Origin: Raillietiella orientalis
Lineage: Eukaryota
Direction of reading: 5' to 3'
Assembly (NCBI GenBank): GCA_036172245.1
Contig: JAYWIR010000011.1
Location: 124,001 to 188,000, forward strand
DNA: 64,000 nt
Shown: one piece after another, positions 11,354 through 59,099 of the stretch
Layout: every line of letters starts with the position of its first letter
How positions within the stretch are numbered: position 1 is the stretch's first letter
Translations under genes and position numbers: made by a program
Notes under the pieces: model-generated
Databases searched by the model: none
Seen by the model: the letters and a program-made list of their open reading frames with translations, nothing else
What the model was told of the DNA's origin: nothing

Positions 11354-14300
11354 CTACTCTTCTTCGCGGTGTTTTCCCAGTTTCTCTTGGAGCTTGTCGA
11401 AGGCCGTCTTGATGAGCATCTCCTGCTCGTCCTCGATGTGATCGACGCCTACGACCTCGGGGATGTAGAACTTGAGCATGTTCTCGACACCGCTCTTCAA
11501 GGTCACGACGGAACTGGGGCAGTTGGTGCATGAGCCCTGCATTTTCAGCTTCACGATGCCATCTTTGAAACCCTGAGGCGAGAAAGAGGAGGAGTTGAAC
11601 GCTGGGTCGCGGTGGGGGGAGCCGCTTGTCCACGGCGAGAAGTCAGTGCCGCTCCCTCCGATTTTGCGAGCAAAATAAAAGGACGACCCTGGAAGCGTGA
11701 CAGGGAGGGTGGGAAGAACTCCTTCGGGAAGAAATCCCTCCACCGGGAGCGTCCGGCGCGAACGCCGGGATGTGGCAACTGGGATGAACAAAAGCTTCCA
11801 GGAGCCGGCGAAGTCGCCCACGAGTCTCCAAAGGCGCGTCCTCAAGAAAGCGATGGAGAGGGAATGGAGGAGGGGAAGGAAGGGGGGTGCGATTTCCGGG
11901 ATTCCATGCGACACTGCACGCGAAATCCCTCGTCCGTCCACGACCCTCATCTCGCCCTTCCGACCCACGTGCACATGCGAGCCGTTACCATGTACACGAT
12001 GTCTCCGCCATCTTCTTGGACGGTGGGCCGGATCCGGGTATCCAACAGCTCCTTGATCAGGGCGATGGTTTCGGCGTCCTCTTCAGATTCCTCGATGATA
12101 TCTGGGGAGAGATAGAGAGGACAAACAAAGAGCGCCCCCACGGCCAAGAGCGAAAGTCTGGCCGGCCGCACGACCGCTCGGGTCACCCTGGAAGTGGACG
12201 CCACGCGAGCTCCGTCGGATGGATGCCCTCTCTCTGGTGGCCACGGATGGCGAGGGGGCTGTTCCCGAAAAGCGGAATGGGTCAGGGGGTGGGGGATGAG
12301 CACACAGCGACGGCCTCCTGGGACCACTGGCGAACGGAGGTGGCCACATCCAAGGCACGGGCCAGAACGGGTCCCCGGACGAGAAGGCAGCGGCGGTGGC
12401 GCTCCGCGATCGGCCGGTGAAACTCGGCCACTCGGCGGGCCGTCGTGTGGTGGAGGAACCAACGCCGGGAGAAGAGCCTTCCGGGAACCCCAGGACTCCA
12501 CTAGCAGGATGTTTATGGGCATCCATAGAGAGAGGGAGAGGGGCGCGACTTCCCGGACAGAGAGTTCGGCCATTCTGTACCCCAGGCCGGGAAGCGACCT
12601 GACCCCACGAAGCTGAGGTTCTCTCCCCCCTGGGAGGTTTTACTCGACAATCTCCTCCCGTCCTAACTCCATTCGTGGGGCACTTCCACTGCTGCGCCTG
12701 GCCGCGGTCCCCAAAGCAAAACGCCACAACCGGAAACGGTGAAGGCCTCGCAGCAAGGGACGTCTTCCTCCCCCTCGGAACAAAGGCGACGCGGCTTCTC
12801 CGTCGGAGTCGCTCGGCAGGGGCGGTTCCGGACTTCGATCACTCCGGGTTCCCAAAGCGGAGGACCACCTGGTGCCGTCGGAGAGCGCGGCCCGGCTCAT
12901 CTCCCAGGAAGTACGCGCAGGAAGAGAAGGAGGTCGCAGGATCCGCTTTCCCCGGCGCTTTCCGGAAACCGGAAACGGACGGGCGAATCGGTCTTCTCCG
13001 CGCCGCTCGAGGCACCGCCCACTCGGACGCGCGAGCGAGCGGACCCCCTGCAGGAACCTACAGGCGAGAGGCGAGACACAACTCGAGCCGTGGCCTTCCG
13101 TTTCCAGTGAGCTGGCGGCAAAAGACACCCAGCTTCCCTAGGCTTCTCATTGACAGAGAACAGATGAAGGGGAGGTCAGCCGGGGTGCTCCAGCGGCGAA
13201 CGGAAACTGAGACCCCCTTCCCCCCCTGAGGGGGACGAGCTCGCCTCTTCCTTCCTCAACCAGAGCTGCCCTCACCCCGGGGAAAGACCTGAGTGCGGCT
13301 CTAGGCACCCGAGGGCATTCGTGACACTCAGCTTCGACGCGATCCGCGTCACGAGCCCATCCCCCTCCCTCCTCCTTTCCTCCAGGAATTGGACGCCGGA
13401 AGCGAAGTCTGATTTCACGCCGTCACGAGACAAGAAAACGGAGAGGGATGCTGGAAGGAGCCCCCGATGGACGGAGCCGATCCGGAACGCGAATCTCCGG
13501 GCGAACGCGGGCGCGTGGTCAGTGAGTCCGAACGCAGCACCACCGCGGTCGGAGGCCAGCCGACCGCGCGATCGACGTGCCCCTCCATCCTGCCCGTCCG
13601 ATGCTCCGATCCTCGAGTTGGCGCACGGCCTCAAACGAGATGTCGGCAGCTTGAAGATGCGCGCACGGGAAAGGCAGCTGCTGCGACGATGGGATGAGAG
13701 TGCTCCCCGAGAACTGGACTTTCGGACCGCCCTACGGACGTAGCGTCCAGTAGATGTCCGTATGATGCAGGTAAAAAGATCTCAGGTATAAAGCGCCATA
13801 TCGCAGTTGATACACAAGGTTTGCCACATGCAATTTATGTAACATTCGCTGGAGCACTACCGCTTATATGCTTCGATGAGTGGTATTACTCGGTAGAAAG
13901 AGGGCCACCGAGATCCCCGAACGAGAACGAACCTTCCAGAAAGCACACAGCTGTCTGGCGCTTGCATGGAGCAAATCCGCAGCCGGCGTGCGCGCCACGC
14001 ATTCAGCTGGCGAAGGACGCGTGTGCGGGTGGCGATCTCTAGAGAACGCCTCCTCCTCCTCACACGACGACGGGGAGGACACCCCCCCCCCCCCCCATTT
14101 CAAATCCACGAGAAGCAGGGCGTCGCACGGCAATTCGGCCCGCTCCTCCCTGGTATTTGTTACTGGACGCGCGTCTCGTACGCTTCGCCGCGTTCCACTC
14201 CGTTGCTACCGTGGTCTCTTGCGTTGCCACCTTTGCAGAGCGCTCGGCCCCGCCTCCGCACGCGTCTCGGAACCCACCCCATCATCAACCCACGAGAGGA

Positions 14301-16980
14301 AAAGTTCAGAGCCATCATCCGGAGCAGTTCTGGGCGCCCACGCCCTCCGCTGTTAAGAGGGCCCACCGAGTGGACGCACAACCGCGGCGAAATTACCTTC
14401 TCTCTGCTTGATGAGCTCCGTTTTCACCACAGGGGCGTTCGTGGCGAAGAAGTCCATCAAGACTGCGAATACCTGGGGCTTTAGGACTTTCCAGTCCACG
14501 TCTTCGTCTATCTGATGCACACCATTACTTATTTGGAAGCGCCATCCGTGAGAGGGAACGGTCCCGCTTCCGGTTGTTCCCACCTCGTCAGTCTGTTCGG
14601 CTGCGCTTACCCTGGTCACCGTGATGAAATCCGGCCCGAAGAAGACGGACTTGATGCCTTCGATCCGGATCAACAGCTTCGCTAAGGGTGAGCAGTAGGT
14701 CGATGCCACGTCTGGAAAATCCATCGTACCGGATTCCAAGACCTAAGTCCGAAGAAAGCACGTCAGCAACGCATGCGGGGACCAGGGGGCCTCTCAGCAT
14801 GGCAAGCGCTCGACACCTTCAGCTTTAGTGGCTCTGCCTCTCCTTCACGCACGACCTCGAGGGCGGAAGGATTCGTCCCAGGAGAAAAGAAAGACGAAAA
14901 GAAAGAAAGCACTCAAAAAGTGGAATCATTCTTCACGCTGGGATGGAGAACATCCAACACAACAACCCACCGATCAATCGATCATAAACCATCAGTCGCA
15001 TTCTAACCGCATTGGCGACACGGCCAATTACCGAACAGAGGTTTGTTCGGAATACGGACGTGAAGATGCCTGAAGGCTTCTCGTGGGAACCACAACCAGG
15101 TATTTGCGTTCGCCAATGATCCGATGCTGTGGAAGCTTAGCGAAGTACAAATTGCAAGCGTCGTTGAGGCCAAATAAATGAAAAACACGCACACACATAC
15201 ACATACACAAATCTTTGGGGGAAACGCGCGACTCCCAACTCACTCGGAGTCAAGAATTTTTTACCTCTTGTAAGATTAATTGTACGTATAGAGCGTGACC
15301 CCCAGGACGTTGATGTTGAGAGCCACTGCGTGGGAGGCAATGAGAACACCGGCCAAGACTTTCCTAAAAGCCCAGCTGGAGCAAATGTTAGGCTGGTCGT
15401 CAGGACCTGGGAAGACTCCAGGTGATGGGAACTCCATGAGTCTCGAATGAGCGAATCGGTCAATTCATGGGTCATTCCCAAGTAACAGTCGCACAGTGAG
15501 TGTGAAATGTAAGACTCGACACGCGTCAAAACACAGCAACAGTAAATCAATAAGCCCACTGGCTAAAGTAGTATCAACTAAAGCAGGTTTCAAGGTGGGT
15601 CAGTGGGTACGTGCATGCTTGCTTTTGTGATAACGCAACGCTTATTAATGATAGTAATGAATGGTCAATCAAGGGTGATCGACTTTCAAAGTCCGAGCTC
15701 AGAACACGGACGTGTCATGCGAAGACCCCCAGGAAAGCAGAAGTACGCCGAGGGAACTGGAAGTAGCTGACCCGACATTTTGATGTATCACTACTGACCG
15801 GCACCAAACAATCGTCTCATTACTCTTCGCAAAGGTCGCGCTTTCAGACGCGTAACCCAGGGTCGCGGCATTGCCAATCCGACGCGACGACTGTGTGACA
15901 CAAATACGTTGACAAGGAGAATCATCTGGGGCAGTCGCTGGGAGACGGAAGCACCGATTTCTTTCCATTCCCGAAGTCTTGTCGAAAAGCACCCACACGG
16001 GGGCTTGAAAACACGGTGAAACGTGGAACTCCCGGTGATGGACACCGTCCGCGAATGCGGGAAAAAAACAGATCCGGGATGCCTGGCAGGTTGCCTCAAG
16101 CAATGCAGATCTCTGAACGGGAAAGCAGCGTTCGAGGGGGGCACCTGAAGAAAGCATGCGAAGGATGCCACGGACGACACCCGAGGTAACGACAGATGCA
16201 GCATCCCAGAAGAGAGTTCCAACGTTTGAGGGTTCGTTCGGTACACCGGTTCGGTTTCCACGATAGTGCCGCAGGGCATTTCGCTCGGACACCTACTGCA
16301 AAAGGAGCCTTCCGTGCATTCTCGCTTTGCTTCTGGCAGCAGACCACGGAAAACGCGCGCGCCCACCCTCGAGTGATATAGGAAAAAGCGGCATTCCAGA
16401 TGGGAGAGGCCCTATGGTAAGTAACGGTGCTCGCGTAACGCGGATGGGTACATTCATTCCCAGGACTAATGGGGCACAAGTAGGCCGACGCAATACAGTA
16501 ATCGTAAACGTCTGGTGGGAAAGAACTGCACTTGCTTGTCGCCTGGGACAACATTTTCGAAATGCCATTTGCACGAAAAAAAAAAAAAAAAAGGCAAACA
16601 TTTCTCCGAGCGACGCTTTTTCCTGACGACACCATCACGGACCGATTCTTCCGGTTTCCCCTTAAGGTTTTACAAGTTCCGAACCGGTTATTTCACTTCA
16701 GTCAAGCTGACGGATGACCTTCGGCCTCCAAGGAAAGAATAATTGCTCATACCTGTCTTCCAGGATGAAATTTCAGACTATTGGGATTTGGAGTGTCTTG
16801 TGTCTGAATGAACAAATTTCTGCAGAATGGTTTGAATAACAATTCGGAATTGAGCAAGTTATTTGGAGAGCTGTGTGCATAATATTTCCCTTTATGCTGA
16901 AAACAACGGGGAAAATTTTTGGACAACACTGCAATTGCCTGAGAGGGCAAACATCGTTTTAATAATGTACGACTATTCAT
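11354..16980 (-). CDS. NFU1: Mitochondrial iron-sulfur cluster scaffold NFU1; exons 16980-16753, 14742-14611, 14511-14397, 12101-11989, 11572-11354 (807 nt, 268 aa)
   Basis: GT-AG exons join in frame. They give a basic transit-peptide-like N-terminus, then [61 protein letters not shown] and the CxxC motif in [16 protein letters not shown]. There is an in-frame stop upstream of the ATG, and AATAAA at 11351-11346. Confidence 0.96.
13761..13844 (+). mobile_element. 84-bp fragment of a bacterial IS5-family (IS1031-group) transposase, Wolbachia-like, in NFU1 intron 3
   Basis: Translates without stops to [28 protein letters not shown], the conserved IS5/IS1031 transposase block. It is AT-richer than the flanking intron. 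Confidence 0.85.
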
Positions 16981-18939: not shown

Positions 18940-20203
18940 TCATATTGAATATTTATTTTTCATTCCACTTTGTTTAGAATTTTGTTCACTGTGTACTTGA
19001 TACGAAATAGTTGTTTTACTAGACAATCCCAAAATTTGCTTCAGATCACATCTGAAAAGCAAGTGCTAATTGGTACTTCGATACTTCAGTGACACACTTA
19101 CCCTATCCTGATGGTGGCTTCATAATTCCCAGCATCAGCATTCCAAAGTTGGATTTTATCGAACCTTGGCCTTACTCCAACTATGGCGCCACAGATTTGA
19201 TCATTGAATTCAAAATTTTCTCCAATCATGCACATTAGCTGAAAAAAAATAATACATGAAAACTGATACATGAATTACCATGAAGATTGCAGTTTTCAAA
19301 ATTTGTATAACCCTTACCACTTCTAACCACAAAAAATCTAAATCAAAACTTGAATTTCTTTGATTTTTAGGGAAACTTATCAACCATCGTCCTCCTTTCG
19401 CATTTCTTGGGTCTTCCCACATTGGCTTGATGCGATCCTTAAAAAAAGAATAGTCTGATCCTGCTTGCAGTTTACTTGCTGATATGGCATAATGATACAA
19501 TCTGGAAAAAGCAGTTTGAATGATGTACATGATATTTAAATATGCAATACAATTTTCTGTTTTCAATTAGATACAAGGGATTCAAGCTCTTTAGCCCCAA
19601 GTTATTGAAACGAAAAATAAATGCATTCTGTTTGAAATGAACACATCTCCTCAATTTAAGTGTCAATATAATAAGGAAAGAAAATGCCATTTAAAGGATC
19701 AAAATTAATTCATGATCAGTAAGTAACCATTACAAAGAAACACAGTAATTTTCCATTTATAATAAATTACTTTCAAATGGGTACAATATGTTTCAAAAAT
19801 GAATGTTTCAACACACTTTGTATTAAAAAACTTGGTCATACTTTTCTAATTTTCAACAGACATTACATTTGGGAGGGCAAGCTAAAATTCATAAACTCAT
19901 TGGTTTTTAAATTAAAAGATGCACTTAACAATACTAATGTTCATTGAATTTTTAATGTATGACTGATAAAATAGTGATTCCTACAAAATACTTTCAAGTA
20001 CTGCTAAAATACATCGGTAATGATTACCCCCAAAAATCTTCTACTGTGTCGACTGTTAACACTTCCTTTTGATCACTTTCCCAATTTTCTTGGGAGTGGG
20101 CTGTGGATATATACCACAATGTCCAAGGATGTTGCAATGGATGTTTCATAACTTTTTCTGGATCAACAGCATTTTCTTTGGCATGCTCGTCTGTTTCTGA
20201 CAT
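18940..20203 (-). CDS. eIF4E: Translation initiation factor eIF4E, class I; exons 20203-20028, 19501-19318, 19238-19102, 19051-18940 (609 nt, 202 aa)
   Basis: In-frame spliced protein contains KHPLQHPWTLW, NWES, TVEDFWG, DYSFFKDRIKPMWED, GGRW, FLWLE, IGENF, ICGAIVGVR, DKIQLW and YQVH. All eight conserved Trp positions are present and the introns are GT-AG. Confidence 0.96.
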
Positions 20204-20684
20204 GCTGACTACCTACATATGAAAAACATCTCTTAATTTCAATGTTAACTTTTCCAAGCAACAACGGCACTTAAAAACACCACTCTCAAAAGTTACGCAA
20301 CTATCACGCACGCACACGTCTAAATTTCATTATTTGGTGGGACGAAAACGTCATGTACGTTATCAATAACTCGAGTGAAACCCATGATTCTTTTAAAAAA
20401 TAAACTCCATAACATACGTATGAGAAAAATCCACGCGACCAATAACGCACGAGAAAGAAAATAGAACGTAACAAAATGCAATAATTACCAAAAACCCGAG
20501 TTAATAAACAGTACTGATACGCGCAAGCGCATCGCACCGCCTAACCACAACATGAAGTCCGGTGCCAAGTGCAGCAGTAATTCCACATAATTTAGATGCA
20601 GGTTCTTTGACGAGAATTAGAATTACTATCTAGGAACATTTATCAACGACGACCCTCTAAATATGAATGCATTACATGCATTAC

Positions 20685-57369: not shown

Positions 57370-58303
57370 AAAGGCAAGGAAGAAGAAAATTATCAGATCT
57401 GCCTTTTGTCAAGTTTTTATTTGGTTGGCTTTTAACGAGCGTTCTCGTAGAGTTTTTTTTGGTTGTTGTTCGGCACGCCGCTTGCTCTACACGGAAGGGT
57501 GCACCGATCGGTCCCCCCCCCCCCCGACGTGCAACAACTCGCACAAAAGCGCAGTTGGGTGTTTTCCGAAGCTGCTGGAAAGTAGGGATGGGGGGGATGC
57601 ACCAGAATGACGAATACGTAATTATCGCAGATCGTCACACGGATGTAGAATTGTGTGTCCTTCGAAACGGTTGTCGCTTATTTCGAATGGGACATCCTTT
57701 CTGTCTTACGGCTTATTTTACCCTTAGAATATTTCCAAGACCGTGGAAAGTTGGCACCCCTTTTTTCTCTCTCTCTCTCTCTCTCTTTTATTGCACATTT
57801 GGCCGACTGCAAGCGCAGGTATAGGAAACGGATGTGTCCACTCTCATCCCCTGATTGAGATTTTCAACGAAATTTGCAACGCATCGTTTTACGTATGTTT
57901 TTTTTTTTTTTTTTTTTCCCCTCTTTCGATCTTTTCGGTTGTATTGCATGGTCCGTGCGTACCTGTAGAGCTAGGATAAAAGAAGCTCTTCCTCCTCAGC
58001 CAAAAGAGAGTAAAAAAAAAAAAAAAATTAATATTTTGTTGTTATTGGCGTTCTTTGCCTTGGGAAAGCCTTCATTGTTCTTCTGTTTACTGCCATAATC
58101 ATTTTGGCATGCACCGTACATCAACAAGTGCAGCACATTTTATCAGCTCGTGTTTTTTTGCTGAGCGGCTGTGCCTGGCCTTCATCCGTGGCACGAACAT
58201 CCTCTCATCGCGATGTTCTCGTGGTGTTCCCTGTACGTTTTTCTCGTCTGGAATGCACACTGGAAATGTGGGGGGCGAGCATCGTGCAAGAAAGCTGTGA
58301 TCT

Positions 58304-58658
58304 GGTGTTCCCGATCCTCAATGCACGTGCTCGATGAGCATCTGGTACCTCTGCTGTTCGTTGACGTGTCTTACGTGCATCCCACGAAGTAAATTATTCT
58401 ATCTGCAGGGAATAGTGTCGCGGATGGCACTTTGTCACTATGTGTGGCATTCCATTCGTTCTGATTTGTTTCTTTTTATTTTTTTGTCCGGTGTTCCCGA
58501 TCCTCAATGCACGTGCTCGATGAGCATCTGGTACCTCTGCTGTTCGTTGACGTGTCTTACGTGCATCCCACGAAGTAAATTATTCTATCTGCAGGGAATA
58601 GTGTCGCGGATGGCACTTTGTCACTATGTGTGGCATTCCATTCGTTCTGATTTGTTTC
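58304..58658 (+). repeat. Tandem duplication of an identical 169-bp unit (58304-58472 and 58490-58658), period 186
   Basis: Both copies read GGTGTTCCCGATCCTCAATG...CTGATTTGTTTC with no differences seen. Confidence 0.95.
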
Positions 58659-59099
58659 CTTTTTTTTGTTTTTCCTTGATGAAGTTTGAAATATCCTAAA
58701 TTATGTGTCGGAACCATATGGTTGATTTTCACATTTTCTGCGTGTGTGTGTGTGTGTGTGTGTTGTTTCCTGCAGAGGATGTGGATATGTGAATTTATTC
58801 TGCCCTTCTCTGAGCAAACATGCCCGGATTGGTTTTCGTGAAAACAGCAGCTCGGAGACGAGTACATGGATTTGCCGGTAATCTATCATTTATATCACTG
58901 CTACTGTGGGGGGAGGCTGTGAGTGCACACCACCTATATAACACTCACATATGCAGCATTTCCTGATAAGGGGAGCACAGCTCGCGGTTCCGTTGCTGCT
59001 TGGGGACGGGCGAAACGTTAGCAACATGTCGCGGGGCGTTGCCAAGTCACCGAACAAGAAACGTATTTTCCCGAGATGGTACACACACACGAGTGCTAT

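Follow-up and report, generated by a model that had tools for sequence, protein, structure and literature searches.

A 138-bp mosaic of two Wolbachia gene fragments inside an NFU1 intron

How does DNA that reads as part of a bacterial transposase gene come to lie inside an intron of an animal gene? The question is raised by a 64,000-nucleotide stretch of the Raillietiella orientalis assembly GCA_036172245.1 (contig JAYWIR010000011.1, positions 124,001 to 188,000 of the forward strand), which is referred to here as the window and is numbered from its first letter. An intron of the NFU1 gene holds in it a short patch that is richer in adenine and thymine (AT) than its surroundings. The original prediction had described 13761-13844 as a fragment of a bacterial insertion sequence (IS), probably derived from Wolbachia and captured as filler DNA during the repair of a chromosome break. 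The patch is found here to be longer and composite: it occupies 13761-13898, 138 bp in all, and consists of two pieces of Wolbachia DNA lying end to end. In our judgement these 138 bp are probably, well short of certainly, a nuclear Wolbachia transfer (nuwt), made of two unlinked scraps that were captured by end joining in the NFU1 intron and are non-functional. The parts of the patch are as follows.

13761..13844, plus strand: piece 1, 84 bp internal to a Wolbachia IS5-family (ISWpi1-like) transposase gene, 28 amino acids
13840..13844, plus strand: junction microhomology TAACA, with which piece 1 ends and piece 2 begins in the donor genes
13845..13891, plus strand: piece 2, scrap of a single-copy Wolbachia MFS_1 transporter gene, in the frame of piece 1
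13892..13898, plus strand: GGTAGAA, continuation of piece 2, where the MFS gene resumes past a 7-bp deletion (7/7 at the expected offset)

The coordinates, translation and composition predicted for the first piece all agree with what is found. Positions 13761-13844 translate on the plus strand into 28 residues without a stop, corresponding approximately to residues 126-153 of the 263-residue transposase P0006, and their guanine plus cytosine (GC) content is 0.381, as against 0.646 for the intron without the patch. The GC content of the whole 138-bp patch is 0.413, and the lowest value reached by any 138-bp segment elsewhere in the NFU1 intron is 0.587. Piece 2 encodes 17 residues over 13845-13891, and an open frame of 114 amino acids (13698-14042) spans both pieces because they happen to share a reading frame. 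This sharing is a one-in-three coincidence, in which two coding scraps have been joined in phase.

The identity of piece 1 was established at both the protein and the DNA level. The 28-residue peptide matches the Pfam family DDE_Tnp_1 (PF01609) with an E-value of 5e-5 and a score of 23.6 bits, the cut-off being 23, and the NCBIfam model IS5_3 (NF033580) with an E-value of 4e-5, at a score far under the whole-protein cut-off, as is expected for 28 residues; these matches bear out its description as the conserved block of an IS5-family transposase. When the enclosing open reading frame (ORF) was used in a protein search, 388 of 408 candidates aligned with its region 14-56 at E <= 0.001. The exact 28-mer is present in five of nine fetched proteins, namely the Wolbachia IS5-family transposases P0006, P0008 and P0010, and also P0007 and P0011, and a transposase of Spiroplasma ixodetis (P0022) is identical to the peptide at 27 of the 28 residues. 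DNA was compared with 80 loci around relatives of P0006 together with the Spiroplasma ixodetis plasmid locus. The best matches in this set are eight IS copies from the Wolbachia of Cantharis cryptica (78/84), and the others include wStri (76/84), a Legionellaceae metagenome-assembled genome (MAG) at 81% and Dehalococcoidia MAGs at no more than 78%. In the plasmid collection, where 69 records matched, the best identity was 88.0%, to a Spiroplasma ixodetis plasmid.

Among 60 genomes of the Wolbachia genus, 32 match piece 1 at E <= 1e-10. The closest is the genome designated G031 (82/84), followed by G043 and G013 (81/84 each), and the best E-value, 1.4e-35 against a 1.5-Mb genome, lies far beyond chance. 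Dozens of IS copies are found on both strands of G013, many of them identical to piece 1 at 81 of 84 positions. Still closer sequences occur in contigs assembled from public sequencing runs (Logan): runs X3, X8 and X10 at 83/84 and run X1 at 82/84 each hold one contig matching over exactly 13761-13844 and continuing into ordinary IS sequence on either side. In every good alignment the IS homology has the same two limits, 13761 and 13844. The genome contig collection gave no exact match to a 56-mer taken from piece 1. DNA identity is therefore 96-98.8% to the best Wolbachia genomes and runs and at most 88% to all other sources, with Spiroplasma plasmids at 88% and the other bacteria compared at 81% or less; together with the 28/28 peptide match, this upholds the proposal that Wolbachia is the nearest relative, and the high identity that a check against Rickettsiales genomes had been expected to give was seen in the 82/84 match to G031.

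Several further observations concern this IS group. The sole IS copy of G031 (C1:1315430-1315513) has CTA (Leu) at a codon where the window and the other copies have CCA (Pro), so that the window may keep a more typical coding state than the G031 copy does. Many of the Dehalococcoidia MAGs (loci L002-L081) carry numerous IS5 copies, whose transposase is 60-76% identical to that of Wolbachia, and the IS group therefore extends far beyond arthropod symbionts. The transposase block is internally duplicated in the proteins P0002, P0003 and P0004. A 640-kb contig in the assembly of the spider Trichonephila inaurata madagascariensis is the source of proteins P0004 and P0005, and it represents either contamination by a symbiont or a further nuclear transfer.

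A second Wolbachia fragment adjoins the first. When 13700-13960 was compared with three Wolbachia genomes, each gave one extra match, at 13840-13895 and with 84-85% identity, and the source locus is a Wolbachia ORF of 405 amino acids that matches Pfam MFS_1 with an E-value of 4e-35. At the permissive threshold of E <= 1, 47 of the 60 genus genomes match 13845-13910. The best matches are to G037 and G013, with 94% identity over 47 nucleotides, and to G031, which is identical throughout 13855-13891 (37/37) and agrees at 48 of 52 positions over 13840-13891 (92%). After TATTACTC the donor genes read AATACTC or AATACTT and then GGTAGAA, and the window passes directly to GGTAGAA; on this comparison a 7-bp unit between two TACTC repeats is missing, and the homology to the MFS gene extends to 13898. 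The suggestion that 13845-13900 might be a further captured piece is confirmed in this way for 13845-13898, which derive from the MFS transporter gene of Wolbachia. Of 301 genomes sampled from the order, 17 match the 138 bp; six matches from outside the genus cover the IS part alone, at 80% identity or less, and piece 2 has no match outside the Wolbachia genus set. Among the genomes, G031 comes nearest to both pieces, which points to a single Wolbachia donor lineage.

The two source genes are not neighbours. About 418 kb separates the IS copy of G031 (C1:1315430-1315513) from its MFS locus (C1:897286-897357), both on the same strand, and in runs X1, X3, X8 and X10 the two pieces lie on separate contigs, so that the patch is a mosaic of unlinked donor segments. 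None of the 60 genus genomes holds the composite junction between IS and MFS sequence, and JGI metagenome contigs gave no exact match to the 32-mer across it. Three pattern matches, in 3 of the 60 genomes, were considered as candidates for the composite junction and rejected, as they are ordinary IS variants with 3 mismatches.

The evidence argues against movement by the element itself. Only about 28 of 263 residues are present, and a complete transposase gene with its DDE triad is absent. By comparison with Wolbachia genomes that hold full copies, no inverted repeats, no target-site duplication and no other part of the IS were found in the 64 kb. Because the fragment comes from within the transposase gene and lacks both the IS ends and any other IS part, the alignments indicate that the IS did not transpose into the intron, as had been predicted from the missing ends. 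The rest of the window was likewise found to hold no other Wolbachia-like DNA when three to five Wolbachia genomes were searched. Against three of these genomes the 64 kb gave four other matches besides the two pieces. Two of them (13761-13856 and 13761-13805) are longer and shorter alignments of piece 1. A third, at 16759-16814, is 79% identical to G002:C1:156273-156328 and falls on an NFU1 exon; it is most simply explained by conservation between NFU1, of mitochondrial type, and alphaproteobacterial Nfu, with no transfer. The fourth, a 30-nucleotide match at 57806-57835 (E 0.007), was taken as chance and rejected as Wolbachia DNA. A comparison of the intron alone with G031 and G013, at E <= 1, showed no match beyond the two pieces.

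The chromosomal setting of the patch is the NFU1 gene. Its exons were located by tblastn with three NFU1 proteins and by reading the splice sites, which gave GT-AG borders and a continuous frame, as listed here.

16753..16821, minus strand: first mapped NFU1 exon, 3' part, 23 residues
14611..14742, minus strand: NFU1 exon, Nfu_N domain (VLESGTMDF...ITVTR)
14397..14511, minus strand: NFU1 exon, 38 residues
12102..14396, minus strand: NFU1 intron holding the patch, GT-AG, phase 1 (from the tblastn exon map and splice-site reading)
11989..12101, minus strand: NFU1 exon, start of the NifU domain
11357..11572, minus strand: last coding NFU1 exon, NifU domain with CxxC

The patch is thus antisense to NFU1 and lies 498 nucleotides from the donor site of the intron. 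With NFU1 exons and their GT-AG borders on both sides, its placement inside an NFU1 intron, as proposed, is borne out in the assembly; and as the exons of one gene occupy both flanks, a contaminant contig or a simple chimera of two molecules is therefore excluded. The NFU1 of the host most resembles that of insects; its exons are approximately 74% identical to those of the bee and 75% to those of vertebrates. A Pfam scan of 144 ORFs between 7 and 21 kb detected NFU1 (Nfu_N and NifU) and eIF4E exons, all on the minus strand, and a comparison with PDB entries found both NFU1 and eIF4E to be metazoan-like. In an NFU1 tree of 39 rows, made up of the host and 38 named proteins picked from 120 listed, unnamed hits being left out, the host stands on a long branch (1.47) in a protostome polytomy. 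This intron also contains a run of about 15 C residues (14083-14097), at a distance of 190 bp from the patch.

How the two pieces were joined, head to tail, can be read at the internal junction. Around the corresponding site the donor IS reads TATGTAACAACGG and the MFS gene of G031, G045 and G042 reads TATTTTAACATTTG. In the window, piece 1 closes with TATGTAACA and piece 2 opens with TAACATT..., the two overlapping by the 5-bp TAACA, and the 12 bases past TAACA agree with the MFS gene, in its wStri/wCon form, at 10 of 12 positions, as against 7-8 of 12 for the continuation of the IS. Microhomology at a junction and deletion between short repeats are typical marks of end joining or slippage. 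Two bases of piece 2, at 13847 and 13854 (TTT to TTC and ACA to GCA), occur in no donor seen, and both are AT-to-GC changes. At 13802 the window has C where the closest IS contigs have T, likewise an AT-to-GC difference, and C is present in other IS variants. The substitutions at these three positions fit GC-biased change in the host after insertion, their numbers being too small to test. An exact inverted match of 11 nucleotides links 13185-13195 to 13847-13857 (GTGCTCCAGCG / CGCTGGAGCAC), about 650 bp off in host DNA; it was rejected as having templated the deviant bases with which piece 2 opens, approximately one such match being expected by chance in 2.7 kb.

At the outer borders, the host flanks would be expected to abut without the patch as GATGTCCG/AGAGGGCC, to within a few bases. 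With as many as 3 mismatches tolerated, the 20 bases to the left (13740-13759) have a single occurrence in the window, and with as many as 2 tolerated they have none in the 60 genus genomes; the suggestion that 13741-13760 is also captured DNA hence finds no evidence of foreign origin in its favour. As a whole, the proposal of an endosymbiont-to-nucleus transfer captured as filler DNA stands in its Wolbachia origin, its intron location, the exclusion of transposition and the second piece, and is unsupported as regards 13741-13760.

A sequence of events that would account for the patch can be outlined. Wolbachia would have lysed in a germ-line cell, and its DNA, broken into small pieces, would have reached the nucleus. 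There, a double-strand break in a chromosome may have taken up such pieces as filler DNA, through ligation or copying in classical or microhomology-mediated end joining, with the TAACA microhomology used at the internal junction. The 7-bp deletion would have arisen by slippage at or after insertion, and the few AT-to-GC substitutions would have followed. We infer such a repair mechanism, as well as the germ-line setting, the lack of function and a fairly young insertion, from the structure of the patch and its identity to the donors; that the transfer was recent is plausible.

Several points weigh against this account. The junctions between host and insert rest on the assembly alone, and the borders of the insertion are placed where homology ends, as is the host status of 13740-13760. 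The left junction is without microhomology, and of the 12 bases with which piece 2 opens, 2 depart from all donors seen and 4 from G031. Finally, direct capture of filler cannot be told from the decay of an insertion that was once larger.

This last alternative is the weightiest, and we regard it as unlikely but deserving of serious consideration. On this view a larger tract of Wolbachia DNA, with an IS copy and the MFS gene similarly oriented on it, would have entered the intron, and deletions, one of them at TAACA, would have trimmed it to the present patch. The relative orientation of the pieces is indeed that of G031, and a donor strain could have carried an IS near the MFS gene, given that G013 has dozens of copies on both strands. 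Deletion has evidently acted on the patch, as the missing 7 bp show, and decaying large nuwts are among the cases described in the parts of the literature consulted (PMC4299567, PMC4046930). Nevertheless, some 418 kb separates the loci in the closest genome, neither the intron nor the 64 kb holds another Wolbachia-like remnant, and two independent deletions would have to leave just two short coding scraps with clean host DNA outside them. Capture of two separate fragments by end joining is the reading that we prefer.

An artefact of assembly or library preparation, in which Wolbachia reads were built into a host contig through chimeric molecules or gap filling, is in our view very improbable. 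It draws some strength from the lack of an independent read set across the junctions, from the many bacterial reads that Wolbachia-carrying specimens yield and from the multicopy nature of the IS. None of the 17 public runs listed contains more than 0.06 of the sampled words, and runs X1, X3, X8 and X10 cover 13761-13891 only, with Wolbachia contigs that include neither host flank nor composite junction, which says nothing for or against the insertion. An artefact would, however, need three false junctions within 138 bp, inside the colinear intron of a correctly spliced gene, and the left junction has no k-mer overlap that could mislead a gap filler. Moreover, two private substitutions and a 7-bp deletion fit a diverged nuclear copy better than reads from a live symbiont. 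A donor other than Wolbachia is scarcely credible, whether another intracellular bacterium with the same IS5 group (Spiroplasma, Cardinium, Rickettsia or a chlamydia) or a eukaryotic element of the PIF/Harbinger type. The IS group is certainly common to symbionts, Spiroplasma ixodetis matching at 27/28 residues and 88% of the DNA, and chlamydial, Legionellaceae and Dehalococcoidia genomes hold relatives. These similarities nonetheless fall short of the 96-98.8% DNA identity to Wolbachia; piece 2 matched the Wolbachia genus set alone among the 301 genomes sampled, and one genome, G031, is best for both pieces. A PIF/Harbinger origin is further opposed by the Pfam match, which is to the bacterial DDE_Tnp_1 family. 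Capture of Wolbachia fragments in the nucleus of the host remains the reading that we adopt.

Beyond the NFU1 gene, the window has a strongly uneven composition, with a GC content of 0.31 at 18-20 kb and 0.62-0.67 over most of the remainder. The most AT-rich part holds an eIF4E gene at 19101-20212 on the minus strand, with at least three exons (Pfam IF4E positions 1-38, 35-95 and 95-141); a search with its exons returned no protein at E <= 1e-10, and a cluster look-up gave generic eIF4E clusters alone. Outside 7-21 kb, no Pfam family, transposon domains included, was found in 150 ORFs of at least 140 amino acids (150 of 160 such ORFs were scanned, the ten beyond 60.7 kb being left out). Because these long ORFs are without a Pfam family, the GC-rich stretches look non-coding, with spurious open frames. 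Rfam found nothing in the 64 kb. A tandem duplication is present at 58304-58675, with a 186-bp unit in 2.0 copies that are 97% alike.

What the patch means depends in part on the host. In itself it is an ordinary small case of the well-documented trapping of endosymbiont DNA in a host chromosome, and on its own it leaves current views as they are. It is nevertheless clean, small and well delimited, its two donor loci being known and its internal junction readable to the base. Such scraps mark a present or past Wolbachia infection of a lineage and show bacterial DNA arriving in the germ-line nucleus as short fragments, and they can mislead contamination screens, Wolbachia polymerase chain reaction assays and IS-based typing. 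The host NFU1 falls outside every sampled insect order in the tree, and the non-coding DNA of the host has a GC content of approximately 65%. A bolder reading, which we hold to be improbable, is that the host lineage is not known to carry Wolbachia and that the scrap is a molecular fossil proving past or hidden infection there. If the host did lie outside the known Wolbachia range, the two private AT-to-GC substitutions would record GC-biased erosion of AT-rich foreign DNA. The case would be worth more in that event, or if the insert were polymorphic and hence datable.

Comparable systems help to place the patch. Nuwts are documented among arthropods and nematodes, for instance in Brugia malayi (PMC3849323), Drosophila ananassae (PMC4299567) and Dictyocaulus viviparus (PMC4046930), and in the portions of these accounts drawn on here they share with the patch their character as non-functional, AT-rich Wolbachia DNA in a host chromosome with high nucleotide identity to its source. 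Unlike the nuwts described in those portions, the patch is tiny (138 bp), joins two unlinked loci, lies in an unusually GC-rich host locus and is known from an assembly alone. A closer parallel is 'Sequence X' on chromosome 7 of the butterfly Aphantopus hyperantus, an ISWpi4 region flanked by Wolbachia sequence for which the authors, in the relevant section of their report, propose that transposition carried the flanks (PMC10083226). In the same section it resembles the patch in combining a Wolbachia IS with other Wolbachia sequence in a host chromosome, AT-richer than its flanks (PMC10083226). It differs in the transposition proposed there, since the IS piece of the patch is an internal scrap without ends, so that transposition is excluded.

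Piece 1 can also be set beside ISWpi1, which is described as related to IS5, widespread in Wolbachia and almost unchanged from strain to strain, its transposase being encoded by two overlapping ORFs (PMC2515875, Cordaux et al. 2008). Piece 1 is like it in being 96-98.8% identical to multicopy Wolbachia IS5 elements, the comparison being with genome copies and not with the ISWpi1 reference. Unlike ISWpi1, the patch has 84 internal bases alone, with no inverted repeats and no complete transposase. The filler capture of organelle fragments at repaired double-strand breaks, which gives rise to nuclear mitochondrial and plastid DNA segments (NUMTs and NUPTs), likewise produces short and sometimes mosaic inserts, joined with 0-5 bp of microhomology and no target-site duplication. 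From these the patch differs in its source, which is the genome of an endosymbiont and not that of an organelle.

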